Origin: Cyanophora paradoxa CCMP329
Lineage: Eukaryota > Plantae > Glaucophyta
Direction of reading: 5' to 3'
Assembly: GCA_004431415.1 (NCBI GenBank)
Contig: QPMI01000643.1
Location: 62,001-126,000, forward strand
DNA length: 64,000 nucleotides
Position 1 is the first letter of the stretch. Each line of letters opens with the position of its first letter. A program made the translations under genes and the position numbers. Positions 9,058 through 60,002 of the stretch are shown piece after piece. The notes beneath the pieces are model-generated. The model worked only from the letters and a program-made list of their open reading frames with translations. It ran no database searches and was not told the origin of the DNA.

Positions 9058-9132
9058 ACACATAGGGATACCCCTGATCCAAGCCTGTAGGCCGAAGGCC
9101 GGAGGGCTTGGATCAGGGGTATCCCTATGTGT
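9058..9132. repeat. Terminal hairpin 1: perfect 28-bp inverted repeat with inner GGCC-GAA-GGCC
   Basis: ACACATAGGGATACCCCTGATCCAAGCC (9058-9085) is the exact reverse complement of 9105-9132, with a 19-nt interior. Confidence 0.97.
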
Positions 9133-9133
9133 A

Positions 9134-12100
9134 TACTTTAGAGACACTGGGCTGACGGCCGGCACTTTATACGAATACACTGTCTTCTACACCACCCCAG
9201 GTGACCAGGAATCGAGAACCAGCAGCGCCATGCTGGAATGGACTGCGCCCTCAGCGCCAGTGCTGTTCCTAACTTCTGACAAACCTGCTACAGTCAGTAG
9301 CGCATTCATTACGATCCTGTCCTCGGATGATTCGGACTATGCAGTAAATTACACTGACGTATACCGCGACGACCGCCCACGGAACTTCCCGATTTGCCGG
9401 GGTAAAGGGGTGATATCTTTTTGTGAGGATAGGAACGTGGTTCCGGGAGCTTCATACACGTATACCGCCCTGTTCGTTGGAGTGAAGCCCACAGAGCATC
9501 ACAAATACCGGACAAGTTTGATTTCCAACAACATGACGCTGACGATCCCTGTGCCGATTCCACCGTCTTTATCCATAGCAGACATTACGGACACGACCAG
9601 CGTCATCAACGCGGCCCTGCCGACGGACGGTAGCGCCTCCACGATTCTCAAGGTCGTCGTGACGCGCTTCTTCGAGGGCGCCAGCACCACGTGGGAGCTT
9701 GACAAGGGCGCCCCCCTCTCGCAAACCGAGCGGCCGCCCGGGTCGACGGCGACCTACACTGCGTACTTCACGACCAACGGGGCGAGCTCGGCGACCTGTG
9801 CGCCGTACACTGTGACGCAGCTGCCGCCGGCGACGCCGACAATCACGACACTGCTGCCGCCGGACACGTCCTCGACCTCCCTCACTGCAACGGTGGTGTT
9901 CGCGAGTGACCTGCCACGCTTCGTCACAGCGATCAGGATCTGGCGCGATAGCACGGAGCTGGAGTCGATTGCGATCACACCGTCCGGCACAGGACCGCTC
10001 TCGTACAGCCTGTTCGACACGCTGCTTGCCCCGGGCAAGCAGTACACGTACACGGCGCGGCTCGTGACGCAGTACGCGGACTCGGCAGAAGCGTCCGCCT
10101 CGAAGACGACAGAACAGGCGCTGGCGCCAACTGTGGATCCCACGCCGCAGTCGGCGACGGCGGTCAACGTGGCAGTGAGCCGCGGAGGAGCCGACGCCGG
10201 CCGCATCGACGCTGCGAGCTTGACCATCACCCGGAGCGGAGAGAACGCTGGGGACAGCGCGACCAAGCATTTGTCGGGGGCGGGCCCCTGGACGTGGAGC
10301 GACGTTGGTCTCGTGGCGGGCCGCCTGTACACGTACACGGCAACGTACGCGACCCGTGGGCAGAGGCTGCATGACGACGGGGCGGACTCGCTGACGAGCA
10401 CGGCCATCAGCGTGCGAACGGCGCCGTCGGCGCCGTCGCTGAGCCTCTGCGCGAGCAGCGCGGCGGTGAACGTGACGGTGGGGTACCCAAGCGACGCGAC
10501 GAGCGACGTCTCTTACGTGTTGGTGTACCGCTCGCCTCAGTGGGGCGGCTTGGGGTCCAAGGCGTGCTGCAACAACGGCGGCACGCTGTTCGCGGACTCG
10601 GAGGTCTCGCCAGGGGCGACGTATTCGTACACGGCAAAGCTGGTGACGAGCACAAGCAGCGCGTCGGAGGGCGTGGAGTCGGCGCTCTCGGCCCGGCGGT
10701 CAACATTACGACAGCGCCCAAGAGGCCGTCTGTGCAGTCGGGAGACAAGACGAAGCTGAAGGAGAAGAGCGTCGAGATCGAGATCCATCCGGCGGAGGGC
10801 TGGGAGGGCGCGGAGCGCATCAATGTGTACCGGAGCGATGGAGCCGTGTACCACATCTCGATCGGCAGCCTCGCGCGCAAGGTGAAGAGCGGCAAGACCG
10901 TCTACACATGGGAGGACAGGGACGAGTCGCTGAAGCCGGGCTCGAAGTACACGTACCGAGTGGAGCTGGAGACACCAGCGTACCCGGGCAGCTGCAGCGT
11001 GAAGTCGGGCGAGTCGGGCGAGGGCGAGGTGTGGACGGCGGTGCCTGCCCCGCAGCCTGTCGTGCAGGGGACGTCAGCGAGCCCGTCGGCGACGGTCAGC
11101 GTGCCGCTGCCGACCGACGGGAACGCATCCGCCGTGGAGGTCACGAAGTGCAGGCGGGCGCCGAGCACGGACTACTTTGTGGTGACGGACCAGCAGTTCT
11201 CGCAGGCGTCGGCTGATGGCATCGACCACGCGACGACGTACACGTACTACTGCATCTTCGAGGGAAAGGCGGCACGGTGAGCGAGGAGGGCCTGGTGACG
11301 GTCACGACGCCGCCTGACAGGCCGGTGCTAAACCTGGTGCCGCTCAACTCGACAAGCATGGAAATCAAGATCAGCATCCCCGACGGGCCCAGCGCCGCCG
11401 TCACGAACGGGACGCTGGTGACATGCAACGGGACCACGTACGGCATGACGGCGGGCCAGCGATCGCTGGTCGTGACGGGCCTGCTGCCGGGCTCGCTCTA
11501 CACGTGCGAGGCGGTGCTGGACTCGCCGGCGGGCAGGTCGGAGCCGTCGGACTCGGAGCCTGCGGCGGGGAGACCTGGGTCGCAGCCGACACCGGTGCAG
11601 CTGCCGAAGGCGAGCCAGCCGTCGGTGACAGTGAAGGACGTCAACAGCACGGCGGTCGTGATGCGGGTGATGGTGCCAGTAGTTGGCGGGGTGCAGCCGA
11701 AGACGATTCGCGTGTACCGGGCGTCCAGTGGAGGCGCCGAGGAGCTGGTTGCGGAGGTCGCCGCAGCAACGGAGACGCAACTGGCCGACGCAGGACGCAC
11801 GCCGGGCACTCTCTACACGTACTCTGCGGAGTACACGACGCAGGGCGAGCCGTCGAGCAGGAGCGACTGGGTGGCGGGCCGCACGGCGCCATCAGCACCG
11901 GCCCTGACACCGACGGTTCAGTCGGCGACGAATGTGACGTTCGCGATTGCGTCGCCGGATGCGACGTCGCCACCGCTGTCGATCGAGCACGTCCAGGCAA
12001 CAGCCGTGCTCCGGAACGGCACGGCGGTCGGGGCCTGCTCGCGGTCGGGAGCTGTGACCGAGTGCACGGACACGGGGGTGTATCCCGGCTTGGTGTACGT

Positions 12101-15100
12101 GTACACGGTGCAGTACAAGGGGCTCGGCGTGGGCGGGACGGTCCTGGAGAGCACAGGCGACGAGCACTCGCTGTCGGGCGTCTCGCAGCTGACGGTGAAG
12201 ACCGACGTGCCGCCAGCGCCGGAGCTGCACGCGACGGGCATCACGGACACGACCAGCGTCATCAACGCGGCCCTGCCGACGGACGGTAGCGCCTCCACGA
12301 TTCTCAAGGTCGTCGTGGCGCGCTTCTTTGAGGGCGCCAGCACCACGTGGGAGCTTGACAAGGGCGCCCCCCTCTCGCAAACCGAGCGGCCGCCCGGGTC
12401 GACGGCGACCTACACTGCGTACTTCACGACCAACGGGGCGAGCTCGGCGACCTGTGCGCCGTACACTGTGACGCAGCTGCCGCCGGCGACGCCGACAATC
12501 ACGACACTGCTGCCGCCGGACACGTCCTCGACCTCCCTCACTGCAACGGTGGTGTTCGCGAGTGACCTGCCACGCTTCGTCACAGCGATCAGGATCTGGC
12601 GCGATAGCACGGAGCTGGAGTCGATTGCGATCACACCGTCCGGCACAGGACCGCTCTCGTACAGCCTGTTCGACACGCTGCTTGCCCCGGGCAAGCAGTA
12701 CACGTACACGGCGCGGCTCGTGACGCAGTACGCGGACTCGGCAGAAGCGTCCGCCTCGAAGGCGACAGCGCAGGCGCTGGCGCCAACTGTGGATCCCACG
12801 CCGCAGTCGGCGACGGCGGTCAACGTGGCAGTGAGCCGCGGAGGAGCCGACGCCGGCCGCATCGACGCTGCGAGCTTGACCATCACCCGGAGCGGAGAGA
12901 ACGCTGGGGACAGCGCGACCGAGCATTTGTCGGGGGCGGGCCCCTGGACGTGGAGCGACGTCGGTCTCGTGGCGGGCCGCCTGTACACGTACACGGCAAC
13001 GTACGCGACCCGTGGGCAGAGGCTGCACGACGACGGGGCGGACTCGCTGACGAGCACGGCCATCAGCGTGCGAACGGCGCCGTCGGCGCCGTCGCTGAGC
13101 CTCTGCGCGAGCAGCGCGGCGGTGAACGTGACGGTGGGGTACCCAAGCGACGCGACGAGCGACGTCTCTTACGTGTTGGTGTACCGCTCGCCTCAGTGGG
13201 GCGGCTTGGGGTCCAAGGCGTGCTGCAACAACGGCGGCACGCTGTTCGCGGACTCGGAGGTCTCGCCAGGGGCGACGTATTCGTACACGGCAAAGCTGGT
13301 GACGAGCACAAGCAGCGCGTCGGAGGGCGTGGATTCCGCGCTCTCGAGCCCGGCGGTCAACATTACGACAGCGCCCAAGAGGCCGTCTGTGCAGTCGGGA
13401 GACAAGACGAAGCTGAAGGAGAAGAGCGTCGAGATCGAGATCCATCCGGCGGAGGGCTGGGAGGGCGCGGAGCGCATCAACGTGTACCGGAGCGATGGAG
13501 CCGTGTACCACATCTCGATCGGCAGCCTCGCGCGCAAGGTGAAGAGCGGCAAGACCGTCTACACATGGGAGGACAGGGACGAGTCGCTGAAGCCGGGCTC
13601 GAAGTACACGTACCGAGTGGAGCTGGAGACACCAGCGTACCCGGGCAGCTGCAGCGTGAAGTCGGGCGAGTCGGGCGAGGGCGAGGTGTGGACGGCGGTG
13701 CCTGCCCCGCAGCCTGTCGTGCAGGGGACGTCAGCGAGCCCGTCGGCGACGGTCAGCGTGCCGCTGCCGACCGACGGGAACTCATCCGCCGTGGAGGTCA
13801 CGAAGTGCAGGCGGGCGCCGAGCACGGACTACTTTGTGGTGACGGACCAGCAGTTCTCGCAGGCGTCGGCTGATGGCATCGACCACGCGACGACGTACAC
13901 GTACTACTGCATCTTCGAGGGAAAGGGCGGCACGGTGAGCGAGGAGGGCCTGGTGACGGTCACGACGCCGCCTGACAGGCCGGTGCTAAACCTGGTGCCG
14001 CTCAACTCGACAAGCATGGAAATCAAGATCAGCATCCCCGACGGGCCCAGCGCCGCCGTCACGAACGGGATGCTGGTGACATGCAACGGGACCACGTACG
14101 GCATGACGGCGGGCCAGCGATCGCTGGTCGTGACGGGCCTGCTGCCGGGCTCGCTCCACACGTGCGAGGCGGTGCTGGACTCGCCGGCGGGCAGGTCGGA
14201 GCCGTCGGACTCGGAGCCTGCGGCGGGGAGACCTGGGTCGCAGCCGACACCGGTGCAGCTGCCGAAGGCGAGCCAGCCGTCGGTGACAGTGAAGAACGTC
14301 AACAGCACGGCGGTCGTGATGCGGGTGATGGTGCCAGTAGTTGGCGGGGTGCAGCCGAAGACGATTCGCGTGTACCGGGCGTCCAGTGGAGGCGCCGAGG
14401 AGCTGGTTGCGGAGGTCGCCGCAGCAACGGAGACGCAACTGGCCGACGCAGGACGCACGCCGGGCACTCTCTACACGTACTCTGCGGAGTACACGACGCA
14501 GGGCGAGCCGTCGAGCAGGAGCGACTGGGTGGCGGGCCGCACGGCGCCATCAGCACCGGCCCTGACACCGACGGTTCAGTCGGCGACGAATGTGACGTTC
14601 GCGATTGCGTCGCCGGATGCGACGTCGCCACCGCTGTCGATCGAGCACGTCCAGGCAACAGCCGTGCTCCGGAACGGCACGGCGGTCGGGCCTGCTCGCG
14701 GTCGGGAGCTGTGACCGAGTGCACGGACACGGGGGTGTATCCCGGCTTGGTGTACGTGTACACGGTGCAGTACAAGGGGCTCGGCGTGGGCGGGACGGTC
14801 CTGGAGAGCACAGGCGACGAGCACTCGCTGTCGGGCGTCTCGCAGCTGACGGTGAAGACCGACGTGCCGCCAGCGCCGGAGCTGCACGCGACGGGCATCA
14901 CGGACACGACCAGCGTCATCAACGCGGCCCTGCCGACGGACGGTAGCGCCTCCACGATTCTCAAGGTCGTCGTGGCGCGCTTCTTCGAGGGCGCCAGCAC
15001 CACGTGGGAGCTTGACAAGGGCGCCCCCCTCTCGCAAACCGAGCGGCCGCCCGGGTCGACGGCGACCTACACTGCGTACTTCACGACCAACGGGGCGAGC

Positions 15101-18100
15101 TCGGCGACCTGTGCGCCGTACACTGTGACGCAGCTGCCGCCGGCGACGCCGACAATCACGACACTGCTGCCGCCGGACACGTCCTCGACCTCCCTCACTG
15201 CAACGGTGGTGTTCGCGAGTGACCTGCCACGCTTCGTCACAGCGATCAGGATCTGGCGCGATAGCACGGAGCTGGAGTCGATTGCGATCACACCGTCCGG
15301 CACAGGACCGCTCTCGTACAGCCTGTTCGACACGCTGCTTGCCCCGGGCAAGCAGTACACGTACACGGCGCGGCTCGTGACGCAGTACGCGGACTCGGCA
15401 GAAGCGTCGGCCTCGAAGGCGACAGCGCAGGCGCTGGCGCCAACTGTGGATCCCACGCCGCAGTCGGCGACGGCGGTCAACGTGGCAGTGAGCCGCGGAG
15501 GAGCCGACGCCGGCCGCATCGACGCTGCGAGCTTGACCATCACCCGGAGCGGAGAGAACGCTGGGGACAGCGCGACCAAGCATTTGTCGGGGGCGGGCCC
15601 CTGGACGTGGAGCGACGTTGGTCTCGTGGCGGGCCGCCTGTACACGTACACGGCAACGTACGCGACCCGTGGGCAGAGGCTGCATGACGACGGGGCGGAC
15701 TCGCTGACGAGCACGGCCATCAGCGTGCGAACGGCGCCGTCGGCGCCGTCGCTGAGCCTCTGCATGAGCAGCGCGGCGGTGAACGTGACGGTAGGGTACC
15801 CAAGCGACGCGACGAGCGACGTCTCTTACGTGTTGGTGTACCGCTCGCCTCAGTGGGGCGGCTTGGGGTCCAAGGCGTGCTGCAACAACGGCGGCACGCT
15901 GTTCGCGGACTCGGAGGTCTCGCCAGGGGCGACGTATTCGTACACGGCAAAGCTGGTGACGAGCACAAGCAGCGCGTCGGAGGGCGTGGAGTCGGCGCTC
16001 TCGGGCCCGGCGGTCAACATTACAACAGCGCCCAAGAGGCCGTCTGTGCAGTCGGGAGACAAGACGAAGCTGAAGGAGAAGAGCGTCGAGATCGAGATCC
16101 ATCCGGCGGAGGGCTGGGAGGGCGCGGAGCTTATCAATGTGTACCGGAGCGATGGAGCCGTGTACCACATCTCGATCGGCAGCCTCGCGCGCAAGGTGAA
16201 GAGCGGCAAGACCGTCTACACATGGGAGGACAGGGACGAGTCGCTGAAGCCGGGCTCGAAGTACACGTACCGAGTGGAGCTGGAGACGCCACCGTACCCG
16301 GGCAGCTGCAGCGTGAAGTCGGGCGAGTCGGGCGAGGGCGAGGTGTGGACGGCGGTGCCTGCCCCGCAGCCTGTCGTGCAGGGGACGTCAGCGAGCCCGT
16401 TGGCGACGGTCAGCGTGCCGCTGCCGACCGACGGGAACTCATCCGCCGTGGAGGTCACGAAGTGCAGGCGGGCGCCGAGCACGGACTACTTTGTGGTGAC
16501 GGACCAGCAGTTCTCGCAGGCGTCAGCTGATGGCATCGACCACGCGACGACGTACACGTACTACTGCATTTTCGAGGGAAAGGGCGGCACGGTGAGCGAG
16601 GAGGGCCTGGTGACAGTCACGACGCCTCCAATGCGTCCAGAGATTGCAATTGATTTTGCAGAGGAAACCGCTTTTCGCGCCACCATCTCTGTTGCTCAGC
16701 TTGCAAGTTGGGCTGTCTCCAACGGCACCATTGTGGTTTGTAATGGCACTGCATCCGTTGTGCTCCCTCTCGGCGAAAGCGAGGCTGTCATCGTGGGACT
16801 GAAACCTGGAACGCTTTACGTTTGTACTGCGACCCTGGATTCACCTTTCGGGCGCTCAGTCGCCTCCCTTCCGGTTTCGGATAGCACTCGGATTCCAGCT
16901 GCACCGATTATTATAGTGCAGGGAGTCACGAACTCGACTGTCAATCTCCGGCTTGTTGTGGCGCCCCCTGCTACTGTCACTGTGTCGAGTGTCCGCATTT
17001 TCCGCAATAATGTTCTGGTCCAGACCCTTCCAGCAACGCAGCTGACTTACATTGACGCTGATCGCGCACCGCAAACGATTTACGAGTACACACTCGATTA
17101 CACGACGCAGGGGTCACCGTCTGCAAGGAGCGCTGTAGCATTTGCCCGGACGTCGCCGTCTCCTCCGATCATCACTCTTCGCAGTATCTCATTCGCTAGT
17201 ATTGGGGTACGGATCGAGAGTCCCGATACACCGATTTCTGCCTCCGTGGAGCGGCTGGTTCTGCTTCGGGACGGGTCTTCGAGCCCTGTCCTAGATCGCA
17301 GCTGCGATGTCAATGCCTTCGACTGCAAGGTTGTGGACTGGGAAATCCTGAACCTCTGTCCCGGGACAACGTATTCGGTGCGAGCGTACTACGTCGGCAC
17401 CGGCCCTTCTCCTGGGGCGACATCGAACAGCCTTGACTCGAACGTGCTTGTCGCGTCGACACGCGTTACTGAAAGGCCTGCACTTGGGCTGCTTGGGCAA
17501 GGCCCAGCAACGCGAAATGCCATATCTGTTCAATATTCTGTGAACGGCAGCAGTTCATCGGTTGCAGGCGTGCTCATCTGGCGGGATGCGGATCTCATTC
17601 TGTCCTGGAGGGACGGGGAGCCGAATCCTCTGAGCATGTGGTACCTCTTCTCTCGGGTCATGTGGTTCGAAGACGCGAACCGGGCGCCGGGATCCACGGC
17701 AAGCTACACAGCGCTCCTGCTGACCTGCGGCGCCAATTCGTCTGTTTCGCTGCCGCTGGTAGTCACTCAGCCAGCTCCCGCGGCACCCGTGTTGACAGTC
17801 TCCAAGGTGGCGGGCCTCTGGTGGAGCTACACCCAGCTTACCGTCTCAATCACAGCCCCCCCTGCTACTCTGAGCGGTTACTACGACGCCGAACTTCCGT
17901 TCCTTGTCAATATCCACGTTTTCCGAAACGGCACCTACCTGCGCAGCATCCCTGTCGGCGGCTCCAATGCAGTATACACTTTTACGGACACCTTTCTGCT
18001 GCCCGGGATTCGTTACTCTTACGCTGCATTGGCCGCCACGACCCTCATCAATTCCTCAATGTCTGCCGCGGCGGCTCAGACAACCAGTTTAGCGCAGGCT

Positions 18101-21100
18101 CCAGCAGTCGCAGCCAGGGGACTCAACTCGTCCGCCATCTCCTTGACAATAACGTCGATCCCGAACCCCGCGAACGTGAATATCACTGCAGGCCGTGTGC
18201 ACGTCTATCGTGGCAGCTCGAAGATCGCGGATGTACCAGCTTCTTCAGCCATCAATCTCATCGACAGCGATTGCATGCCAGGGCGCAGCTACAACTACAC
18301 TGCAAAGTACACGACGGAGAACGCGCTTGGGGTGGCAGGCGCAGACTCTGCGCTCAGCCTGACTTCAAGCGCTTGGACGGCGCCTTCCCCTCCGCTTCTC
18401 AGCCTGTCAGCTGTCTCGCCGACTTCAATCCACGTGTCTCTCATTCCGCCTGGCGATGGCTCCGCCCGCGCCATCACAGGCACGGTGGTAACACGAGCGG
18501 CAAGTCCATTGGACGTCACAGTCTGCAGCTCCGGCCCTGGTGGCGTTGCGCAACTTCCATCGTGCACGTCGAGTGCACTCGTTGCGGGGACCTTGTACAA
18601 GCTCTCCGCTTACTATTCGGGCCAAGGTAATACCGAGAGTGCCACAGCCGTACTGGAGGCAGCAACCGCTCCACTCGCTCCCTTCGTACTCAGAGGCGGT
18701 GAAGCGACGAGTTCTTCGGTCAGCCTTTCATTCTTGTACGATGTGCCAAGCTCGACCTTCGCGAATGCAACGGAGCTCTGGCGCAACGGGACTCGCGTCC
18801 GCGTTTTCCCAAATACGGGTTCCTTGGTAGCTGCCTGGAATGACACAGGCCTCGCTCCCGTGTCTCCGTACGCATACCACGTCGTCTTGACCACGTCCGA
18901 GACGCGTCTTCGCGTGGAGTCTCCGGCCTCCTCGGTTGCCGTTCTTTGGACCGCTCCAAATCCGCCGCAGCTCTTGCTCATAAGCAACACGGTCCATCCC
19001 TCCGTCACCGTGCAAGTTCCTCTGCCGTCGGATGGGACAGCTCGCTTCATCGTGGAGACGAAGTGCCAGAGGACCACTGGGGAAGATTTGGTCCTGGACG
19101 GCGAAACGCGCCAGTTTACGGACTCGAGCGTCGAGTTCTCGACCACGTATTCGTACACCTGTTTCTTTTACGGCCAAAGTGGCACACGCAGCATCGACTC
19201 TGCCCCGCTGGTCGTCGCGACACTGCCATCGCCACCTTCGCTCTCCGCTGCTCCAATCAACTGCACCTCCCTAGAACTGACCTTGACGATCCTCGGAGTT
19301 TCGACCAGGAGGGTGATGACGGGCACGCAAATCACTTGCTCCGGGCCCAATAACTTTGCCCTCGGCCCGGTCGCTGTTCCCGCGGGCCAGATGCAGTACA
19401 CGCTCTCTGGATTGTCGCCTGGCTTGACGTACCTCTGCTCCGCGATCGTGCAGTCACTCGCGGGAGACTCGTCGCCTTCCGACTCTGTTCCCGAGACTGC
19501 CACAAAAGACCCCACACCCGCAACGACCTTCTCGGCCCCGCGGCCCTCTGTCACTTGGGATCGGTCCCTGTCCACCGTATCAACTATCGGGCTCTACATC
19601 ACGGTGCCGCCCACAGCGGGCGTGACTGTCGGGGCCGTTCGTCTCTACCGGCAAAATGAGGACGGGTCTTGGCCTTCGACAGCTACGATGGTTCTCAATG
19701 CGCCGCCATACAAATGGACGGACGAGTCCCGAACACCGTACACAAGGTACACGTACCGTGCGGATTACACAACGCAGGGCGCCCCATCTGCCCTGAGCAT
19801 CTCGGCAAACGCCTGGACTGCGCCATCGCCGCCAACGCTCTCGGCTCCGGATGCCGACGTCGGCCCGACTTCCGTGAGGTTTGTAATCACTGATGGAGAC
19901 GCCTCGGCCAGCGGCGCGTATGCTCGACTGTACAACCCCGCCAACGCAACGTTTGAGCTGCAACTCGACGCCAGTGTCCGCGAGTACGTCCAGCATGGCC
20001 TCAACCCCGGCGACACCGTCAGCATGGAGTCGCGCCTCGCGCAGCACCCCGACGGCTCGGCCCTGCTCAGTTCCTTATCTAACCGGGTGACGAAGACCAC
20101 CAAGGTCCCGGGCCCGCCGACGGTGAACATCACCGGCACGACCTACCAGAGCGCGACGTTCTCGGTGACCCTCGCCAAGGATGGCACGGAGTCGGCCGTC
20201 ACCGCCGTCGAGGTTCGGCGCGACGGAAAGCTGATTGTAACATTGTTTCAATTCAACTTGTCTCATTCACACGTTGACTCTGGTGCGGACGTCTCCCCAA
20301 TCGGGCTGCTCTCCAGCCGCACGTACTCTTACGTGGCGACGGCTCTCACGACCGGCCTGCCATCGGAGCCTTCCGCCCCGGCACTTGCTCTAATTCCGTT
20401 ACCTCCCGCTCCGGAGGTGCGGCCGACAGCTGCGAACTCGTCCGCAATCTGGCTTGCATTCCAGTCCAGTGTTCCATCGGGTATTCTGTCGCGCTTCGAT
20501 GTCTACCAGAACGGTTCCTTGATCCTATCTTCTGCGAATATACCTGCGAGATGGATCGCTGCTGGGCTAAACCCGGGAACCGTTTACACGTTCAGCGCGA
20601 AGCTTGCCACCATTGCAGCCGAGTCGCCTTCGTCTTCCTTGCGGAGCGCGGCTACTGACCTGGCTACCGCGCCCATCATCGACTATGTTGGGGCAAACGA
20701 AACTTCAATCGACATTGCCATTCTGCTTCCCAGCAACGATGATGCCCTTCTGGCTAGAAAGCTCCGCGTCTATGTCGATGGCGCGCTGTATTCCTACCTG
20801 GATCCGTCGACCACATCATACTGGGTGCCGTCACTCGCGAACAACCGCGCATACAGCCTCACCGTGGACTATACTACCGATGGAGCGGCCTCGCGGCGCT
20901 CTAATGCAATCGCTCCGCGCACAGTTCCTTGGCCGCCGGTCCTGGCTTCTGCATCCGTGTCGACTTCGGCTGCCAGTATTACAGCAATGCCCGATTCACG
21001 GATGCAGGCTGGCGGTATTACGTCCGTTGTTTTGTCGAGAGTCGTAACCTCTGGCGCTACAGCTGCTTTGTCCTCCTCCTGGATTTCCAGCCAGCAGCCG

Positions 21101-39500: not shown

Positions 39501-39727
39501 GGGTCTTCTACAACGGGCCGGGCTCCGGCGCGGACACCAGCGTCGGCTCCGCAGGCGGCGGCGAGGCCGGCGCGGGAGGGGCGCCCCACGGGCAGCTCGC
39601 CCGCTCGGGCTCTCTCGCCCGCTCTGGGTCGACCGTCGGCGCCGGCGCCGGCGGGGCGGGCCAGCGGCAGGCGTCGCCCCTGCGCAAGTCCTCCTCCATC
39701 ATCGCCCGCCGCCCCTCCATCTCTTAG
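33563..39727 (+). CDS. Class III adenylate cyclase with N-terminal LRRs and long coiled coils, about 31 introns
   Basis: Spliced exons give LRRs (LTELDLSGNRI, LQHIDASENRI, LRLRNNNF) and cyclase motifs VFTDIQGST, EVKTEGDAFMIAF, MRVRMGIHTG and RMDYFGPMVNRAARVEG. K and D specificity residues indicate ATP as substrate. Confidence 0.9.
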
Positions 39728-48000: not shown

Positions 48001-49116
48001 CCAAGCCGAAACCAGTCTCTGATTGCGGCCGAGGACCGAAGCCAAACGCGACCGACGTCCGGTTTCCAGCGGTAGCAATGGGGGCATGGGACACGTTAAA
48101 CCCGCGGTAGTTGGAATTCGAAGTTGTGTTCTGCAGACTGCTGTTCGCGCTGCTGAGGGCTGCAGGGTAGAGGCGGAGGGAGCCGTTGCCTGCGTGGTTG
48201 CCGTAGCCAACGACGATTGCACCACCGGGAATGCCGCACGACTCCGGGGCCGGCGCGAGAAACTGGACGAAGGTGCCCGGGTCGCAGCCAGCAAGAATGT
48301 CAAACGAGTAGTCGGGGTCAACGAGGAGCCGCTGTGACACGCCCGTAGGAAGTGGAAACCGGCGCAGGAAGAGATGGCCACTCGACTGATTCGAGGCGTC
48401 GTAGCTCGCGAAGTAGCCTGGTTCGTTCATGACCATGAGCTGCTCAATGTACCAGCCGCTCATGGTATAATTATATATAATTATAATGATCGTACCGAAA
48501 TCGCTAGACGCAGTAAACAGTTGCGATTTGTCGGCGCCCTGTGCAAGTAGAGCATCATAATAATCAGTCGGATCTCCAATGAGCTCGGCCGCCCCGGCGC
48601 CCGACTCGGACGGCCGCCGGGCGCGGACCGCACCTCGGAAGGAAACGTGCCGTTGGGGGTGAAACCTGTGGGCTGGTAGAGAAGGTCTGACAAGAGAGGA
48701 TCGCCGTCCGCGGAGGAGTTCGTGACGAGTGTGTTCTTCCGGAAGTACACGTATGTTCCTTTCAAAATTGCACGCATCACGCATTGCAATACTGTCAGTT
48801 GAGTTTGGGCGGGGTGTGGCGCGGCTGCGAAATCATCACTGAGTCAAGATCATCACCTTCCAAGCGGCTGCCGTCGTCGCTGAAGACAATCTGACCTAGG
48901 CACACGTATTCAGCCGCATTGCCGTATTAACATTGTCAACGTTGACGTTGTCTGACCATTTCCGATTTCCAATTGCGATAGTGCGCACGGGAGAAGAGCC
49001 ATCGCCAGAATGCATAAACTGATCTTGAGGCCTATTAGGTGCGCGCGCGGGGTTGACATTGCGAGCGCGACCGGCCGCGACCGGCCGGGGCAGCTTTCTG
49101 GATCCATCATGTGCAT
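42004..49116 (-). CDS. Large intron-containing membrane protein: signal-like N-terminus, long extracellular region, C-terminal multi-TM domain resembling TRP/FLC-like proteins
   Basis: Hydrophobic LKISLCILAMALLPCALS near the start and long exons at 46196-48784. Serial TM segments in 42450-44800 (QAQFMAMTAYL, LGWMLGFFPLPW, LVGAVMLAAVSGGLLVASVVLV, LLRKLVSGLAIGLL, QLGVLIGVDALEVVLLLVWLP). Exon structure and ends are not fully resolved. Confidence 0.55.
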
Positions 49117-49375
49117 GTTGACGATTGCAACTTGGCAAGCTGCAATTGCGATTGACGTTCCCGCGCTCCAGCCGCAGGAGGAAGTACTAGTACAAGTGCG
49201 CGCGCGTGCACACGTGCGCGCGCGCGTTTTCGAGAGCTAGCGCTAGCTATATAGCTAGCTGCAGTCTAGCGCTAGCGCTGCAGCTGTGAACCTATAGCTA
49301 GCTATAGGCTGCTATCCGGCCAGGGGCTAGCTAGCGTTACTACTCGGCGCGCGGACGCCGGCCTGGAAGGCTGGA

Positions 49376-49870
49376 ACTGCCAGTGCGCACTGCGCCAGTG
49401 CGCACTGCACTAGTACTGCCACAGTGCCACTGCCTGCAGTGCAGCCTGCAGGCTGCAGCCTCAGCCTGGCACTGCTGGGCCAGTGCTGGCAGCTGCGCAT
49501 GCCAGTCTGCGCATATGCATGCACTGCGATGCAGCCTGATGCAGGCTCACTGGCTCACTGAGTCAGAGCCTCTAACTTGCTCTGCCAGTCTGGCAAGCAA
49601 GACAGCAGCGCAGACTGCGCAGTGCGCACTGCAGTGGGAGCATCTGCTGCCACTGCAGTCTGCACTGACTCTGCAGACTCAGTGCAGAGTCGACGCGTAC
49701 GTCTGCTGCGGTCTGCAGTCTCAGAGTCTGCAGCAGTGCAGGCCACTGCAGTGCAGTCTGCAGGGCACTGCAGGCTCACTGAGTCAGCGGCTGTGCAGGC
49801 CGGCGCCCCCGTAGTAGGGGCCCGTACTACTGGGCCCGTAGTGCCGCAGTGCATGCGCAGCTGCGCCGCC
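49376..49870. repeat. Low-complexity tract built from TGCA/CTGCAG/CAGTG/CACTG words
   Basis: Dense, aperiodic recurrence of self-complementary words over ~500 bp. Confidence 0.8.
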
Positions 49871-50198
49871 TGCGCGCGCGAAGCGATTCCAAGACTAAAT
49901 CCAAGTTCATGAATCATGGCCATGGTCAAGCGAATTCGAAGCGGCTGGCCGATCCGCCGGACCGGGGTACAGCGCGCGCATACCAGAATAGCCAATCAGA
50001 ATAATCGGTCACCTGATCCCCAGAATAATAATTAAAGATGTGTGTACCCCGTGTACGTATATGTGTGCGGGCCGCACGGCCCGCTCCGGGGCCCGGGCCA
50101 GGCCGGCGGCGGCCCCGGGCCCCAGTACCGTACACCGGTGCAGTACTAGTGTTGGGTAAAGTTTATTCCCCCAAAATTGCCCTGAAAACTTTCTGCAA

Positions 50199-53100
50199 TT
50201 TTTTTTTTGGTGAATTACCGGCCACAGTCTCTAGACACCAGCACTGCGGGGGCTGCCCAGGGGGCATAAAGACAAAAAAGCAAAATAACTAAGACAAGAG
50301 CACGAAGAAAGATAAGACAAAGAGCCAAAATCGACAATAAAAAAGGAAAGACACAGAGCTCGAGACAGATCGATTGCGAGAAGAGACGATAAATCGAGCA
50401 GATCTAGGGACAGAGGATAACTTTTTTTTGAGTTTTCCGTAGTTTATTAGGGGACAGAGCCCCTGGTACACAAAAAACATCGTTTTCTGTCTACCCTAGG
50501 CCTAGGTCTACCCTAGGCCAACTAATATACTTTAGCCTAGTCTACTCCCCACTATTGGGTCTCCGACTAGGCGCCCCAAGGGCTATACCCTATTGCGAGC
50601 CCCGCCCCCTCTACCCTTGAGGCGGCTCTCTCGGAGCCTCCCCCCCGCGACGGGCCAGGGCCGGTCACGATGGGGTGGGGTAGAGAGGTGGCAGGGGGCT
50701 GGGGCCGGGGAGATTGTTGGGCTGGCAGGCTCAGGGTTTAAAGCCAAGCGGCGAGATCCCAAAGATGAGAAGAGAGAGGAGGAGATCTCCGCGGTGGTAC
50801 CTCACGTGTTCCCGTGCAGGACAGAGGAGCGGGCGTGGAAGGCGGTGGAGGTGGCGGTGTCGGTGGAGCGACAGGGAACAGATGGGACAGGTTGCTGGAG
50901 GGGCGAGATGGGGAGGGTGGAGCTGGAGAGCCCGTTTCGAGAAGAGGAAGGGTGGAGGAGGGGAGGGTGCGGGGAGGAGGCTGGGGTGAGGGCCGGGCCT
51001 CTTCGGTGGGGAGGGCGGGGCGGCGGCCGGTCTTGTGGGGAGGCCGGTCTTGAGGTTCGGGAAGAGGCTCGGGCACAGCTGATGCGGCTGCGGACGACGC
51101 TCCATCCCGCCGCTGGGCGTGACCATGAGCAGCAGCAGGGGTGACGGAAGCTGCTGCAGCTGTTCTAGATCTGCGGGGGCGAGGTCCGGGTCCGGAATTA
51201 TTGCCTCGGGCTGCACGGAATCCCGCCGACTCTTGAATTTCTCGAAGGAGGCGCGGGCGTCGCGTCCGCACTGTTGCCGTGCCGTCGGCTTGTGCCACTG
51301 GTGTGTCAGGCGGGGGCACTTGCGTTGGCGGGCTGTCCTTTGGACTCTGGGGCCTAGCTATAGAGGTGTCGCTGACGGCCGACGGGCGCGGGCGGGGTTG
51401 GAAGAAGGTGCGGATGTCTGCTCGCGAGTTCCGGGCCGCAGGCCTTGGGGTAGGCTGCGCGCTCAGCGGGGGCCGGTATTGGGGTTCCGGTGCGGGCGTG
51501 ACTATTTTGGGCCTGGATGGGCCTGCAATGGCTTCATCTTGGGGGGCGCGGTCTGTCTCGCTGGTTTTGGGGGGCGACACTGGAGCGGTACATTTTCCTT
51601 TGCGTTTGTGCTGCGCCAGGGCTTCGGGGGAGGCAGCAGCGTAACCGCACCGGCAGCTGAGGGGGGCATCCCGTGGCAGTTCTCCCGGGGCCAGCGCAGC
51701 CACCGGTATTGCCCGGGGCTGCTCGGGCTGGGAGGCGGTGCTCGTGGGCGCCTCCGTATCCAAGGCCTGCGAGCCTAGAATCCGAGAAAGAATGAGGCCG
51801 CGCCAGGTGGCGCAGTTAGACACAGTGCCCGTGAAGGAGGGTGTGTAGGCCGTGGGGTCATGTTCCAGAGCACGGACAAGTATTTCGGCGAAGGCACAGA
51901 CGAAAATCCCGCAGTTGAAGCGATCGTTTTGGGCCGGGATGGGGAATCGGGTGGCTGAGGGGAGGGGCCAGGTGAGAGCGTCGTCGGCGCCGGTCGAGGA
52001 GCCTAGGGCTGCGCATTCGCGCTCCATGTTGAGCCATTTTAGGAGGGGCAGGAGTTGACGGCGGGCCTCTTCGGGGCCCGGGAGATTGTATCCATCGTAT
52101 AGTTCAGCACGGCGAGCACGGAGATGGAGGGCTGCAAGGATCCAGTGGCCCGGGGTGTGGATAGGGAAGAGTAATAGGTCATAGTCAAAGACATTAATTC
52201 CGCGCCCAGCGGTGCGACGGCGCAGGCGGGCGCTGCCCGCCGGCGTTATTGTCTGGGGAATAGCGGCGTAGAAAGTGTGCGGGAAAAGTAAGACGCGTCG
52301 GCGAGGGTTAATTTCTCCGCTCGCAAGAAGGTTTAGTCGGGCAAGGTAGTAGTTGATGACGTCGGCGTTCACCCAGGACGAGCCGTTCAGCGTGGCTAGG
52401 TCATGGAGCGATACGGAGGCACTGCCAAACAGTGCAGCGGGGCCGCTGCGGGCTGCCGGGAGCTCTCGGACTGCGCTGTTGGGTAGAGCGCGGGTAGGGG
52501 AGCGGCGTACTTGGGCCCAGGCGGCACGTAATGCAGGTGGGGACGGCGGAGCCGGCCACCCTGCATTACTGGCATTAATATTGGTGATGCTGTTAGCAGC
52601 TGCCGGCCTAGCTACAGGTCTAGGTCTCGGGCTCGAGCTCGGGGCGGCGGTAGGGGGCACCGGCGTTGCGGGTATCGCTGTTGTAGGGGGGGCCGTGGCC
52701 GGCCACGGTGCTGGGGGAGCAGCGCGGGTTCGAGAGCGGCGCGACTGGCTGACTAATTGTAGGTCTGATGAGAGGGTGAGCTGGCCGTTGGGTATCCGTC
52801 GACGCGGGGCCGGGGCCACCACGGTCGAGGGGCTCGTGGGCTCATCCCTAATCCTGGCTGGCATCGACCTCGCCGGTGAGGGCTCAGCAGGGCGCGAGGG
52901 TCGAGGTGCATGAGTTTGGCGGCGAGTAATCCCGTGTCGGCGTTGCCAGGACTGGACTTCGCTATTGCGAGCCTTCCAGATTGCTTGGGTGTAGTCTATG
53001 ATGGTGGCCATAATTGCGTTGGCGCATTTAAGCGCCGCCGGTCTACGTACATCTAAGTAAATCAGGGCAGGGATGAGGCTACGAGGAAGGAGGAGCCTGA

Positions 53101-56100
53101 CGGTGTGGCGGGGAGAATCGCAGGCAAGGTCGGCGAAGAGTTTGCTGCCGAGGCTTTGCCACTGATCGGGCAGGCCATAGAGTGGCTGCGTGAGGTGCGA
53201 AGGAAGGGGGCCCGGCCGTTGGCGCTGACGCTCTGACCATCCCCAGTTTGCATCGTCAGCCAGTGCAAAGGCCGGGAACAGTTGGCGCAGCAACAGTCCG
53301 TCCTGGCGCAGGGCCGGGGGCAGCTTGTAGGCTGGGTCGCCAGCTGCAGCCGCATCGACTGCAGTTTTTAGGCGTTGAGACGATATGGTTTCGTACAATA
53401 GGTTGAATATCTTAGTTTGGGCTTCGATACGGAGGGTGCGTGTTGCTGGCAGAGACCAAAGGCGTGGTCGTGGGTTTCAGGCGTCCCGCTAACGATAGGG
53501 GGGGCCGCGGTGCCTGGCGTGCGTCTCGTGCGGCCGGGTCGCCGTTGGGGCCGTTCCGGATCCCACCGTCTTCCTCGGGGTCGGACGCAGGCGGCTGCCA
53601 TGGCGGGGCTGGGGTGGGCCGGCCGTCTGGGCCTAGCACGGACGCGCAGCCTGCGCGAACACAGAGTCCATTTGGATTTATTGCACTATAGAGATGGGGA
53701 GCGTCCCGGGCACGTTCACCCATGAGGGGTGCGAGTCCGGAGCTGAATTTCGTGATTTGAGCAAGCCTCGCATTCAGGGGGTGCGATGCATCGCGGGAGA
53801 GCCCTTTCTTGCGGTATTCGCGGGCGAGGCGCGCACGGTCGACCGGACTGCCCAAATGGCATTTTTCGGTTGCAAGGAGACGGGAGAAGTTCCGAAATTC
53901 GCACGTATTTTTTACGTGTGCTCGCGGGTCAGACTCAACTCTGTAAACTCTACGAGTGTCGTAGTTCTCGTTCCAGCAGCGCGGGGGCGAAAAGAGTAGG
54001 ACCATGTCAAATCCGCCAGGGGAAAGACCGGCTCCCGGCGGGCGTGCCACGCGCGTTTTGATGCAACTGTTGCGGCCGGGGACGGGTCTTCGGGGTCAGA
54101 TTGCCAGGCTGCTTCCTCAGGGTCAGCCCAGGAAGAAAGTTCCCGGCCGTCGAGTGCCTGCCGGGAGAGGTCTGCGCTGGGGTGCAGAGCCAGTGCCGCA
54201 GCGGCGAGGCGGTCGGCTCGTGCGTTGTCCCGATCAAATGCACGGTTTGGAACCCGTTCTTCTTCCACCAGCAGGGGCAGGCTTGGTAGTCCTGGTGTAT
54301 GCTGACCTAGCGCAGCCCGGGCTTCGCGCCGCCTCTGTCGTTCTGCTCGCCTGGAGGCACGAGACGCTTGCTGCATTTGGTGGACGGCTCGGCGGGCGTT
54401 CCGACGGTGGATGTGGGCAGTGCCCGCGCGAAGGTGCTCGGAGATATAGTTGTAGGCGCCGGTTAGCGGGTTCGCGCGCCCTTCGTATACTCCCGTGCCG
54501 GGGCCATATTGAGCTATCAGTTCCGCCTCCGTAGGTTCGGGAGCGACCGGGTCTCGGTCAGAGAGGTAGGATTCGTATGAGTCTGCGTCTGATTCCGAGT
54601 CGTGGTCGGCCACTTCAGCGGGGCGGCAGCCGGGCGCGGGCGGCGCCGAGTTATATATTCTTTCTGGTGGGCTTTGACTTTGACAAGACGTTCTTCGTAT
54701 AGCATTCTGTCGGGTGCCACGGCCCTTGCTAGTGCAAGCCGGATGCACTGCACCTCAGCATACGCTTTAAGGTGATGGGAGTACGAGGCTCGAATGCAGC
54801 TGCGAAGGGTGGCGGTGGCGCGATGCGAGACGTACTTGGAATAGTCCGCCATTGCAGTGAAGCTGTCAGTTTTCACTGTGCAGCCTTCGGGAGAGAGCAG
54901 CAGGGCGGACAGGACGGCGAGGAGCTCGCCTTTGTTATTGTTCACTGTGCCAGGACACGGGGCCACGAAAAAGTCGCTGCCGTCGGTCGGGATGGCGTCT
55001 GCAAGGCCGCGAAGTTTCGCCACCTGGTCAGTATCGACGCCGGTTGTGCCCAGCCGGTCAGCTAGTGCGTGAATTTGTTGACGGAGGGCTATCCCTCGCT
55101 GCGTGCGGGCAGCTTCGTCAGCTAGTGAGGCCGGGTTGCTCTCACGGGGCCAGACGCCAGCGTAGGCCGTGAGTGCAGCTTCTGAGGCGGCGTCCATGGT
55201 ACTGGCATCCGTGGCTGCGAGTCGGCGCTCGCGGTCGAGCGGGAGGGAGGTGCGGCCGAGCTCCGCGGCAATCAGGTTCCAAAATGGGTCAGCATACTCT
55301 GACGATGGGATGCAGAAGTCGCTCAACTGTCGGCGTTGGGGGTAGGCCCGAGGCGCTGTCGGCGGGGGGACGGTCCCAGGGTCGCGAGCGGCGACTCCAT
55401 CTGGCCGCTGGGGCGCCGCGTGATCATCTGGATCATAATTCCAGTCCTGTTCCCACGGGGGAGGAAATGAGTGTCGCGGAACTCGGGCCACCACGTTATT
55501 TTATCTTCAAGGAAAATGCGAGCATGCTCGGCGACACGGCCTGACCGCGACTCGGGGACCAGGCTCTGAAGTCGGGCGGGGTAGATGTAGGCTGTGTCTT
55601 CGGTCCAGCGGCACCGTTGGGAGGCCGGGTCTGAGTGGTCACATGCGCGGCGGAGAGCCTCTGCTTCCGGCGTTTTCGCTGTGAAGCGGCTGTCGCATTC
55701 TTTGGGATCCATTATGCAGCGGAAGAAGGAGACGGGTTCGCCGGTGGTGTCATATATGTGGTCCTCTCGGTCGTCCTGGCCTTTGTCTCGGCGGACCCAG
55801 TGTTCGAGCTCAACTAGGACGCGTTCTCTGCCGTCGTCAGCGTCAGTTGTCCGCCGGATATTGCAGATGCGTCCTAGATACGCTTCCGTTGTCCAAACGA
55901 AGCCGCCGACTTTGTACTGGGGCGAGAGCAGGCCGGCTTCAAGAAGGGTACGTTGGGCTGCAGCCGGATTTTGCGCAGGCTGCAGGTGCATGGGGAAGCG
56001 GAGACGACGGGGGATGGCGCGCGGGCCGACGGGCTGACATATTGCTCGGGTGAACGACGGGAACCAGGAGGGAGGTCTATTGAGTCGCTGTTTAATTTTC

Positions 56101-56380
56101 CCGCTGCCCCATAAGCTAATCCAGTCGAGCACACTGACGCCGTCGGGCCCCGTGACGTCAGCAGCTGTGAGGATATCGTGGCGCCAAAGGAATGGTGCAG
56201 CCTCACGCAGGAGGCGCGGGGGGAGCAGTGTTGTGAGCACAAAGCGGCGTTCGAGCTGCGGGTGAGGCAGGGCCGGAACGAGATAGTCCTTGCCTGAGTC
56301 GAGTTTGTAGCCGGCGCGGGTCAGATTTCGCGCTACAGCTAGTGCAAAATTGTCTCTGTAGGCTGCGGGGCCCAGCTGTA
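50199..56380 (-). mobile_element. 3' half of a non-LTR-type retrotransposon, interrupted at 56380 by the Polinton-like element
   Basis: One long frameshifted minus-strand ORF followed by a U-rich 3' region and a possible A10 tail (T run 50199-50208). The RT domain is not in the window, so the class and 3' end are inferred. Confidence 0.65.
50738..56380 (-). pseudogene. Retroelement polyprotein fragment: post-RT region, RNase H, zinc-binding motif, IWxxRN, Ulp1/C48 protease, C-terminal Zn finger; several frameshifts
   Basis: RNase H residues AATDAS / NNKGELLAV / VKTDS / VKVKAH / NARADRLA; C..C...ETHDHAFGLC; AIWKARN; Ulp1 motifs WVNADVINYY, PIHTPGHWIL, LYDG, QNDRFNCGIFV. Confidence 0.8.
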
Positions 56381-56475
56381 ACACATATGTATAAACTTAT
56401 TTAAATCCCTCGTTCATCTCGATCGCTTCGCGATCTCGATTCACTCAGGATTTAAATAAGTTTATACATATGTGT
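56381..56475. repeat. Terminal hairpin 2: perfect 28-bp inverted repeat with inner GATCGC-TTC-GCGATC
   Basis: ACACATATGTATAAACTTATTTAAATCC (56381-56408) is the reverse complement of 56448-56475, with a 39-nt interior. Confidence 0.97.
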
Positions 56476-56784
56476 CAAAATTAATACTAAAATACGTATT
56501 TATCGATTAAATTCTTTAACTTTTTTATGCAAACTTTGTATAAATTAATGCAAACTTTGTATTAAAAATGAAAAACGCGTTTAACTTTATGCATATTAAC
56601 GATTGAATCAATTGATCTTATATCGATTGATTATGTTCTTTGTCGATTACATATATAACTGCGATTAATTTGCATTAAACTACTTAAAGAACGAAATAAT
56701 CGCGATTAAATTGCATAAATTCGCATAAACTCGATATATCTCTCTGGTATTGAAGTAGACCACCGCCCATTCTGTATCGAAAAA

Positions 56785-57052
56785 CGCAAAAAGTGTCACA
56801 GAGTTGCATTGTGTCCAATTAAACAATCGATGAGATTGCTGATTTGCATTTGTGCACCCAAAAACTGTCACAGAGTTGCATTATCTCCAATTAAACAATC
56901 GATTATAATGGGATGGGCACTTTTGCACCCAAAAAGTGTCACATAGTTGCATGGTCTCCAATTAAACAATCGATGGGATTGCGGATTTACATTTTTGCAC
57001 CGAAAAAGTGTCACAGAGTTGCATGGTCTCCAATTGAACAATCGATTAGATT
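56785..57052. repeat. About 4 tandem ~71-bp repeats (AAAAGTGTCACAGAGTTGCAT...CCAATTAAACAATCGAT)
   Basis: Units start near 56790, 56860, 56931 and 57003. Confidence 0.85.
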
Positions 57053-57164
57053 GCATATGTTCTATAAAACAGAATAAATGAATTCAAGTGTGACAGGTAG
57101 TATTCAAATGATATTCAGTAAGAGATAGTTTTGTTTTTGAGAAAGTCAGTAAGAGGGGTGGAAT

Positions 57165-57640
57165 GTCTGTGACGCCTGTGACGGCTGTGACGCCTGTTTT
57201 CAGAAGTCTGTCATTTTTGAAAATTTTAAAAAGTTTGAAAGTAGGTGTCACAGGCGTCACAGGCGTCACACTCAATTAAATTAGGTGTCACAGCGAAATT
57301 GCAGACCATTTCCAGTAAGACAACTTCGCATTTTCAAAAAGGTTGATTAATGGATAGTGTTTTGTAGGTGTCAGAGGTGTCACAAGACGGATTTCAGTAA
57401 GACAAGAATATATTTTCGAAAATCTCAGTAAGAGAAAGAGATTCCATTGTTAATTGGGTGTGACGCCTGTGACGGCTGTGACGGCTGTTTTCAGAAGTCT
57501 GTAATTTTTGAAAATTTTAAAAAAAAGTTTGAAAGTAGGCGTCACAGGCGTCACAGGCGTCACAGTCAATTAAAGAGGCGTCACAGTCAATTAAATAGGT
57601 GTCACACCCGATTATCTGACCATTTTCAGTAAGACCATCT
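57165..57640. repeat. Two ~290-bp-spaced copies of a module of 9-bp TGTGAC/GTCACA repeats in inverted arrangement around an AT-rich core
   Basis: (TGTGACGCC/GGC)x3 - AT core - (GTCACAGGC)x3 at ~57169-57270 and ~57460-57565. Confidence 0.85.
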
Positions 57641-57808
57641 GAAATTCTGAATTTCTCAGTGTCAACTAACTCGGAAATCGCAATACTCTATGTTTCTCCG
57701 ATTTCTCCAACCCTGAAAACACACCTGTTATTCTCTCATCTATCTCATGAGATACTCTCGTTTCGCCAAAAATTGACAAACGATTTCCCATCATGCTGTA
57801 AAGGAAAC

Positions 57809-58075
57809 ATGCCGATTAACCAGCAATATCACAATTTCCATGGGACTTACATCTTGATTGTGAATAGAATGCAAGATCATTATGAGATCTTTCAAGAGAT
57901 GGGATTGCGAATTACAAGGAGATCAACTCTTTGTAGATTCTTGAAAAAGAATGGTGCTAAATGGGATAAGACAATTCGCCGATGGTATACAGAGGATGCT
58001 AAGAGTCCCCTTCTTAATATTTTCGAGACAGATGGGGAGTTTTTCTATCAGGATCGGTTTAATCATTACCAATAG
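57809..58075 (+). CDS. Small hypothetical protein with a DUF5710-like motif
   Basis: First ATG at 57809 in ORF 57659-58075; LKKNGAKWDKTIRRWY resembles the K..GA.WD...K.W motif of DUF5710. Confidence 0.5.
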   Translation: MPINQQYHNFHGTYILIVNRMQDHYEIFQEMGLRITRRSTLCRFLKKNGAKWDKTIRRWYTEDAKSPLLNIFETDGEFFYQDRFNHYQ

Positions 58076-58116
58076 CCAAGAACTCCAACTGGAATGAGTT
58101 GTCTATTCCATTCATA

Positions 58117-58399
58117 ACACATAGTAAAATGCGGAGTTTTAACCCTCGGCTTATCTTAATTGATTTTGTTGATATATCTCGTATATTCTATTTCAATCAA
58201 TCGATAATCTGTGTGTATCTTATCGAATATTCAATTATTTCGATTATTTTGTATTCTTTTCGATATTTTATCGTAAATTTCTCTTATTTTCCGATTAGTC
58301 TTACTGAGTCTATCGATAATCTCTATATATTTCCGAATAATATAACTGAATCTCAATTAGATCTTGCCTCTGGTTAAAACTCCGCATTTTACTATGTGT
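58117..58399. repeat. Hairpin 3: perfect 28-bp inverted repeat enclosing a 227-nt imperfect foldback
   Basis: ACACATAGTAAAATGCGGAGTTTTAACC (58117-58144) is the reverse complement of 58372-58399. The interior pairs imperfectly (GGC/GCC, ATCTTAATTGA/TCAATTAGAT, ATCGATA/TATCGAT). Confidence 0.95.
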
Positions 58400-60000: not shown

Positions 60001-60002
60001 AA

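Follow-up and report, generated by a model that had tools for sequence, protein, structure and literature searches.

How Polintons and their relatives leave the chromosome and how their copying starts rest on models and not on an observed reaction (PMC4046053; bioRxiv 10.64898/2026.07.28.741278; what is said of cited works, here and below, refers to the passages of them that were available). A locus of the glaucophyte alga Cyanophora paradoxa CCMP329 raises the question of what the ends of such elements look like and how they might work. The window, i.e., the whole stretch of DNA analyzed here, comprises 64,000 nt (assembly GCA_004431415.1, contig QPMI01000643.1, positions 62,001 to 126,000 of the forward strand) and holds three foldbacks, H1, H2 and H3 (Table 1), which a first-pass annotation made from the letters alone had taken for the ends of Polinton-like elements. 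Definitions and background follow PMC12747079, 10.1101/2022.07.28.501842, PMC6431247 and PMC11296320. In the following, we call the insert that ends in H1 element A and those that begin with H2 and H3 elements B and C, respectively.

Geometry and position of the hairpins

A search of the window for perfect inverted repeats with loops of up to 1000 nt returned H1, H2 and H3 as its three longest stems, each of them perfect over 28 bp with ACACATA at the start and CC at the end, and thereby confirmed the three foldbacks with their interiors of 19, 39 and 227 nt. The next stem in length, of 22 bp, lies within a GC-rich low-complexity repeat, and the longest stem obtained by chance from 200 blockwise dinucleotide shuffles of both AT-rich parts of the window measured 17 bp, with none close to 28. 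Compared pairwise, the 19 middle positions of the stems match at 9, 6 and 7 sites, whereas inside its own stem every middle position is perfectly paired (57/57). This bears out the earlier proposal that structure rather than sequence is kept and, as far as the sequence can tell, it is the structure of H1 to H3 that is conserved.

The window is AT-rich from 1 to 9132 and from 56381 to 64000 and GC-rich in between; measured over 2 kb on either side, the GC content goes, left to right, from 0.40 to 0.64 across H1, from 0.62 to 0.34 across H2 and from 0.39 to 0.33 across H3. Two of the foldbacks had been placed at AT/GC junctions where a host reading frame is cut. This holds for H1, beyond which a host repeat-protein frame begins mid-repeat at 9134 and is followed by nine related stretches downstream, with a weak fibronectin type III match in one of the downstream frames. 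At H2 the junction stands, but the frame of 352 codons that reaches it has no Pfam match and is a candidate host gene only.

Public sequencing runs place the H2 boundary more sharply. Of 22 runs listed (one possibly the source of the window itself), 19 contain at least half of the sampled words of 55400-64000, and contigs of four (X1, X3, X6 and X16) were placed on 55900-59300; counts of loose ends, joints and pieces refer to those listed. In X1, X3 and X6, an 869-nt contig at flank-like depth matches 56221-56381 and then leaves to DNA outside the window, while in X16 the corresponding piece among those listed stops before H2. This contig is the host site free of the insert and locates the boundary, to within a single base, where H2 begins. 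Not to be equated with copy number, summed depth steps up about 20-, 9-, 11- and 8-fold at H2 and 7.5-, 2-, 7- and 3.6-fold at H3 across the four runs, and one contig of X16 starts precisely at 58117. Variant forms occur as well: a joint from 58215 to 58330 in X3 is an H3 form about 114 nt shorter in the loop, seen in this one run, and a loose end of X3 before 56481 reads as an alternative inner arm of H2 that retains the anchors at the same distance with 5/11 intervening letters changed. None of the three joints listed for H2 and H3 changes strand, though contigs drop rare forms. In X1, X3 and X6 (3/4 runs), contigs branch at 57761, in agreement with element B having a terminal repeat of about 1.4 kb whose inner border lies there.

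Taken together, H1 to H3 are very probably the tips of elements, and the view that the hairpins mark element ends is supported in that AT-rich inserts, multi-copy as judged from the contigs at H2 and H3, end there and insert-free host contigs leave exactly at H2. The palindrome thus lies at the tip and beside host DNA at H2, where the insert-free contig fixes the junction, and at H1, where the host frame is cut. The first-pass annotation had named as its refuter independent miniature inverted-repeat transposable elements (MITEs), each with its own target-site duplication; this refuter fails, since the flanks of all three hairpins are free of direct repeats of 2-12 nt.

The bases beside the tips (9133-9138, 56375-56380 and 58111-58116) are TA-rich and, when read toward the element, end in GTAT, TGTA and CATA, hinting at a target preference with n=3.

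Loop anatomy on the 3'-terminal strand

All three loops start with CTC when read from host to element, and the hairpins therefore share one polarity. Beyond the H1 stem, the 3'-terminal strand, i.e., the one whose 3' end is the element tip, places T.G, G.A, T.G and A.G opposite each other; four Watson-Crick pairs come next, and a C-GAA-G cap occupies the exact center. The same strand of H2 has one T.G and then three tandem G.A/A.G steps that are spaced by 2, 3 and 6 Watson-Crick pairs and lead to a central GCGAAGC, while H3 shows A.G, G.A and A.G, three Watson-Crick pairs, A.A and A.A before a long capless loop. The 28 bp are accordingly the spacing between the tip and a conserved three-pair bubble, rich in G, that all three hairpins share.

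On the 3'-terminal strand, every loop mismatch of H1 (4/4) and H2 (7/7; 11/11 together) is T.G or G.A and the first 5/5 mismatches of H3 are purine-purine; on the opposite strand, these mismatches turn into C.A, C.T and T.T. With the shared bubble counted once, 10/10 independent mismatches are one-sided (two-sided p ~0.002). When the loop letters were shuffled 200,000 times and either strand was allowed, zero pyrimidine-type mismatches together with a central C-GNA-G arose in 0.16% of cases for H1 and 0.002% for H2. Such caps with a stem of at least 4 occur only three times in 16.8 kb of AT-rich DNA, and two of them are the centers of H1 and H2. Five subterminal inverted repeats that served as a control lack such a bias on the 3'-terminal strand, and the predicted folding energy is lower for the 3'-terminal strand in 3/3 hairpins (by 0.7, 1.9 and 4.3 kcal/mol). 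The GCGAAGC motif is described as the most stable DNA mini-hairpin, nuclease-resistant and found at replication origins, with CC-GG stems also accepted (PMC13037366). We consider it probable that a strand-specific DNA fold is under selection here.

The GTCACA repeats of element B show a mismatch bias of their own that is the reverse of the terminal hairpin's, with 12/12 listed mismatches C-type on the minus and G-type on the plus strand.

Elements, host surroundings and relatives

The inserts are likely endogenous Polinton-like viruses. Inside the window, hallmark genes lie in element C only, and A and B are labeled Polinton-like by inference. Inward of H3, an rve integrase begins at 1.9 kb and a protein-primed B-family polymerase (pPolB) of Polinton type at 3.3 kb. 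The integrase gives an rve match under the curated cut-off, its profile matches the foamy-virus integrase (E 5e-16) and its acidic triad is invariant in 4/4 aligned sequences. The polymerase matches PF03175 under the curated cut-off and has 632 relatives at E <=0.001, of which the best is 46% identical over the whole query; it is split at 62720-62729, in a short run of identical bases, into two overlapping frames, possibly by an assembly error or as a decayed copy. The combination of pPolB and rve integrase, from which a hairpin-ended group of viruses had been proposed earlier, is seen beside H3, one of the three hairpins. No genes for major or minor capsid proteins, packaging ATPase or protease were found in the window frames scanned, and no Rep/NS1 initiator or protelomerase among 11 frames scanned; each of the three elements is incomplete, being cut short by nesting or by the edge of the window, and has only one of its ends in the window.

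Table 1. Position of hairpins, element parts, genes and host frames in the window.
Feature	Position	Strand	Detail
H1, right tip of element A	9058..9132	+	Arms 9058-9085 and 9105-9132; loop 19 nt
H1, inner parts	9086-9088 vs 9102-9104; 9094-9096	+	Bubble; GAA of the C-GAA-G cap; plus strand is 3'-terminal and G.A-type
H2, left tip of element B	56381..56475	-	Arms 56381-56408 and 56448-56475; loop 39 nt
H2, inner parts	56427-56429	-	GAA of the GCGAAGC mini-hairpin; minus strand is 3'-terminal, with one T.G and three tandem G.A
H3, left tip of element C	58117..58399	-	Arms 58117-58144 and 58372-58399; loop 227 nt
H3, inner parts			Same G-rich bubble and three Watson-Crick pairs, then the 227-nt loop without GAA cap
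Element A, right part	1..9132	+	AT-rich; LamG-domain protein, related upstream frame, four small open reading frames (ORFs)
LamG-domain protein of A	1008-7199		2063 aa; long arrays of a 13-aa repeat
Four small ORFs of A	7239-8947		No known family
Element B, left part	56381..58116	.	Likely terminal inverted repeat to ~57761
72-nt array of B	56787-57054
GTCACA-motif inverted repeats of B	57164-57279, 57450-57573
Small ORF of B	57809-58075
Element C, subterminal region	58400..60110	.	GTCACA-motif inverted repeats 58653-58743 and 58838-58928
31-nt array of C	59525-60000
14-nt array of C	60003-60102
rve integrase of C	60327..61712	-	461 aa; acidic triad D126, D188, E224
Polinton-type pPolB of C	61716..64000	-	Endonuclease VII-like insert; runs past the window edge
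Host repeat-protein frame	9134..10759	+	Fibronectin type III-like; interrupted mid-repeat by element A
GC-rich stop-free frame	55326..56380	-	352 codons; reaches the H2 junction; no family match

Element C likely inserted into B just past the latter's first small ORF (58117), giving a nested insertion. Subterminal repeats with the GTCACA motif are common to B and C and missing from the 557 nt of A that precede H1. The LamG protein of A is possibly a fiber or attachment protein. Two of its small neighbors (7239-7553 and 8103-8561) share a similar segment in the manner of paralogues and have no family in Pfam or PHROGs, the latter with only weak unnamed Atlas matches; no viral locus was found for 8103-8561 and no homologue for the ORF at 8558-8947.

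On the host side, the repeat-protein gene contains, at 9583-16500, a 2,657-bp unit in three nearly identical tandem copies that are separated by frame breaks. About 2 kb from the stop-free frame at H2, a 912-codon frame on the minus strand (50741-53476) carries a Ulp1/C48 peptidase domain and is possibly part of a host mobile element that was struck by element B. The idea that this flank is a long interspersed nuclear element was dropped, as there is a Ulp1 peptidase only and no reverse transcriptase match. We likewise rejected the GC-rich 47 kb as an element bounded by H1 and H2, because the two stems are unlike and the GC-rich DNA goes on without H2 elsewhere.

No second host with such ends was found in scans of viral contigs and prokaryote genomes or at loci with distant integrases. 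In viral contigs, the stem pattern with loops of 10-40 nt gave eight loci, seven of them with 12-17 mismatches and none relevant, a relaxed pattern with GAA cap gave one locus without a stem, and loops of about 39-69 nt with the CTC mark gave none. The eighth of the loci from the first scan, which we discarded as unrelated (L008, 1-6076), is one perfect palindrome over its whole length with phage-like genes, likely the read-through assembly of a hairpin telomere. Among prokaryote genomes, the pattern matched 29 loci, including two perfect stems that extend past 28 bp by 1 and 3 bp; these bacterial stems of 29 and 31 bp (L025, 1501-1575; L048, 1501-1599) have the ACACATA...CC anchors but neither bubble nor viral genes and are probably unrelated repeats. 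Searches of viral contigs with the single integrase protein and with the polymerase returned no relative, and Rfam gave 0 matches. An alignment-based integrase search yielded loci of 23-35% identity, 2 of them viral and 11 from metagenomes; none of these 13 has an ACACATA stem, though their contigs may not reach the element ends. In public assemblies, there is an integrase of 77% and a polymerase of 46% identity. One viral contig (L010, 283-11008) carries a distant rve integrase beside a 1356-aa ORF, with neighbors of which, by eye, one is likely the small subunit of a ribonucleotide reductase and another a capsid-like ORF.

Precedents and possible working of the ends

The first-pass annotation knew of no description of such ends, but terminal palindromes and a hairpin-priming model have already been reported for Halocafeteria seosinensis, in endogenous virophages of subtypes 1, 2, 5 and 6 and in subtype 4 of the Polinton-like viruses (bioRxiv 10.64898/2026.07.28.741278). 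There, the palindromes adjoin target duplications and go with particular RVE integrases and mostly with non-pPolB replicases (bioRxiv 10.64898/2026.07.28.741278). In both systems, AT-rich nested inserts of a eukaryote are concerned, and an element with an rve integrase has a palindrome at its outermost end, beside host DNA. The Halocafeteria palindromes measure 52 nt in subtype 5, were sought with a gap limit of 10 and lie in mostly non-pPolB elements, whereas here a fixed 28-bp stem spans three unrelated sequences, with a conserved bubble, one-strand G.A, loops of up to 227 nt and one hairpin beside a pPolB. A preference for non-pPolB replicases is not seen in C, which has a pPolB, and the replication genes of A and B lie outside the window. 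By our reading, neither H2 nor H3 would have been picked up by the Halocafeteria search, which allowed four mismatches and a gap of at most 10, and the available text of that preprint has no "sheared", "GAA" or "flip" and no fixed stem. Terminal palindromes, with hairpin priming as a model, are thus already known, and what is new here is the predicted strand-specific fold and the fixed-length anatomy. No paper on a fixed-length or one-strand end was found by title or the start of the abstract, a search whose coverage excludes most subscription papers.

Other systems resemble these ends in parts. Like Polintons/Mavericks (Polintoviricetes), element C combines pPolB and rve integrase at one end with low GC and long subterminal repeats, but the single-stranded model for Polintons pairs two distant terminal repeats and has no local fold of the tip (PMC4046053). 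Some casposon repeats hold internal palindromes (PMC4046053), and a "palindromic repeat" label appears in a figure legend (10.64898/2026.10.13.758929). Streptomyces telomeres are alike in working only, as protein-primed ends of a linear replicon with the 3' strand folded through sheared G:A (PMC4513846); they have several short palindromes, Tap/Tpg and no integration, whereas here one long stem goes with an integrase and no Tap/Tpg was seen. The mismatch pattern of H1 and H2 fits such a Streptomyces-type 3' fold, with the structure itself predicted. [quoted passage not shown] It serves as our working model, joining a 3' hairpin primer to a GA/GAA bubble as critical spacer (PMC1185569), although it is Y-shaped, nicked by NS1 and part of a small single-stranded DNA genome, and no such initiator was seen here. 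Telomeres of poxviruses, phage N15 and phaeoviruses share a palindrome that would yield a closed end; theirs come with flip/flop isomers or a protelomerase site (PMC13236599), ours with one polarity and no such gene in the frames scanned.

The account that we favor, while stopping just short of calling it probable, is an integrase-cut, self-priming cycle of the folded 3' end. When the provirus becomes single-stranded (as lagging strand, displaced strand or cruciform), the strand with the 3' tip would fold, the rve integrase would nick the junction of TATGTGT-3' with the host to release a base-paired 3'-OH, and this 3'-OH would prime copying of the element by the polymerase and leave a hairpin-capped end. 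For insertion, the integrase would reopen the cap at the same bond, located by ACACATA and the fixed 28 bp from the bubble, and host repair would copy through the hairpin after strand transfer and so restore the junction palindrome with its polarity unchanged. The cut would have to be found by sequence and distance because a capped end has no free terminus to measure from, which would account for both ACACATA and the 28 bp. It is the 3' strand that a DDE integrase releases and transfers. We prefer this cycle because the strand favored for folding is the very strand that such an integrase transfers and because the folded 3'-OH would lie paired next to its template. The variant H2 arm of X3, which keeps its anchors 11 nt apart despite the changed letters, speaks for a fixed length. 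If our system and that of Halocafeteria are related, the integrase would be the common factor, since the palindromes there are mostly non-pPolB and one here stands beside a pPolB.

Several points weigh against this cycle. Only three full hairpins were seen and their shared bubble may be inherited; the variant H2 arm was seen without its partner arm; and the folding-energy gaps are small (0.7 to 4.3 kcal/mol). H3 is the one hairpin for which the integrase is known; it lacks the GAA cap and its loop is long and variable, a poor match to a capped end. The protein-primed polymerase encoded by element C and the ACAC at its start suit protein priming with no self-priming involved. As a rule, integrases of the retroviral type cut behind CA-3' and not GT-3'. 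Free, capped or nicked ends are predicted only, and contigs cannot display them. Tandem sheared G.A pairs are generally held to be stable. The available passages of PMC6061790 did not state that stability.

A tentative alternative, which we regard as possible but not probable, is that protein priming uses the tip as a local origin. Replication would proceed by strand displacement from ends primed by a terminal protein, and a single strand that has been displaced or excised would fold back at its 3' end and rebuild a 28-bp duplex terminus on the spot, where a complex of polymerase and terminal protein would bind and start at the ACAC repeat, with no cut inside the hairpin and polarity kept, as a local stand-in for the adenovirus panhandle akin to the 3' overhangs of Streptomyces. 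The pPolB next to H3 speaks for it, as do the tolerance of a long H3 loop and the conserved terminal ACAC repeat, of a kind known from slide-back initiation; the original Polinton paper reportedly described terminal motifs and proposed slide-back. In Streptomyces, sheared G:A closes the hairpins of the folded 3' overhangs, and protein-primed synthesis fills them in (PMC4513846). A free 3' end, however, needs no ruler, so the exact 28 bp are less well explained, the folded 3'-OH could itself readily serve as DNA primer, a panhandle would already be permitted by long terminal repeats (~1.4 kb in B, by inference), and the non-pPolB elements of Halocafeteria would be outside its reach.

The remaining explanations fare worse against the anatomy of the hairpins. 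Ends that are covalently closed and undergo resolution in the manner of poxviruses, phage N15 or adeno-associated virus (AAV), with a resolvase that cuts a cruciform or dimer junction into flip and flop, are unlikely: the polymerase does contain an endonuclease VII-like domain as a candidate resolvase and the H1 and H2 loops are near-symmetric, but this insert occurs in most of 120 polymerase relatives listed, many of them from animal genomes, and is not specific to these ends, and 0/3 joints listed change strand. The pox- or AAV-style flip/flop ends considered at first pass are disfavored because 3/3 hairpins share one polarity (p = 0.25 alone) and the loop is built for one strand. About as improbable, or slightly more so, is a functionless by-product of fold-back repair or template switching at ends, in which self-templated correction keeps the palindromes perfect, an alternative raised in the Halocafeteria preprint (bioRxiv 10.64898/2026.07.28.741278); stem middles that change fast while the arms stay matched are as expected from self-copying, but the single stem length over three unrelated stems, the bubble, the central GAA caps and the one-strand G.A would be left unexplained. 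That independent MITEs with 28-bp terminal repeats sit at these sites by coincidence seems highly improbable. With lengths of 75 to 283 nt and terminal repeats that match perfectly, the hairpins would suit MITEs, and the two perfect stems among the 29 prokaryotic matches illustrate that such anchors can arise independently; yet these two exceed 28 bp and come without bubble or viral genes, the stem sequences of H1 to H3 differ and lack flanking repeats, and H1 and H2 divide host from insert DNA, with the insert-free host contig lacking the entire AT-rich tract and not the hairpin alone.

H1 to H3 are real, very probably element ends, and look functional. That G.A pairs favor one strand also speaks, at the level of sequence, for a stage at which these elements are single-stranded, and gives a criterion directly usable on the Halocafeteria palindromes. 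With H1 and H2 there are defined substrates of 75 nt and 95 nt that have built-in controls in their opposite strand, stem length and bubble, and excision, priming and integration are therefore testable with oligonucleotides and one natural integrase. A wider possibility, which we regard as rather doubtful, is a group of Polinton-like viruses with hairpin-capped genomes that a retroviral-type integrase would open 28 bp from the G.A bubble, such that integration unfolds and excision refolds the end in one polarity. If this were true, the integrase would be the opener of a hairpin telomere, and exit from the chromosome would need neither the pairing of distant repeats nor a terminal protein.

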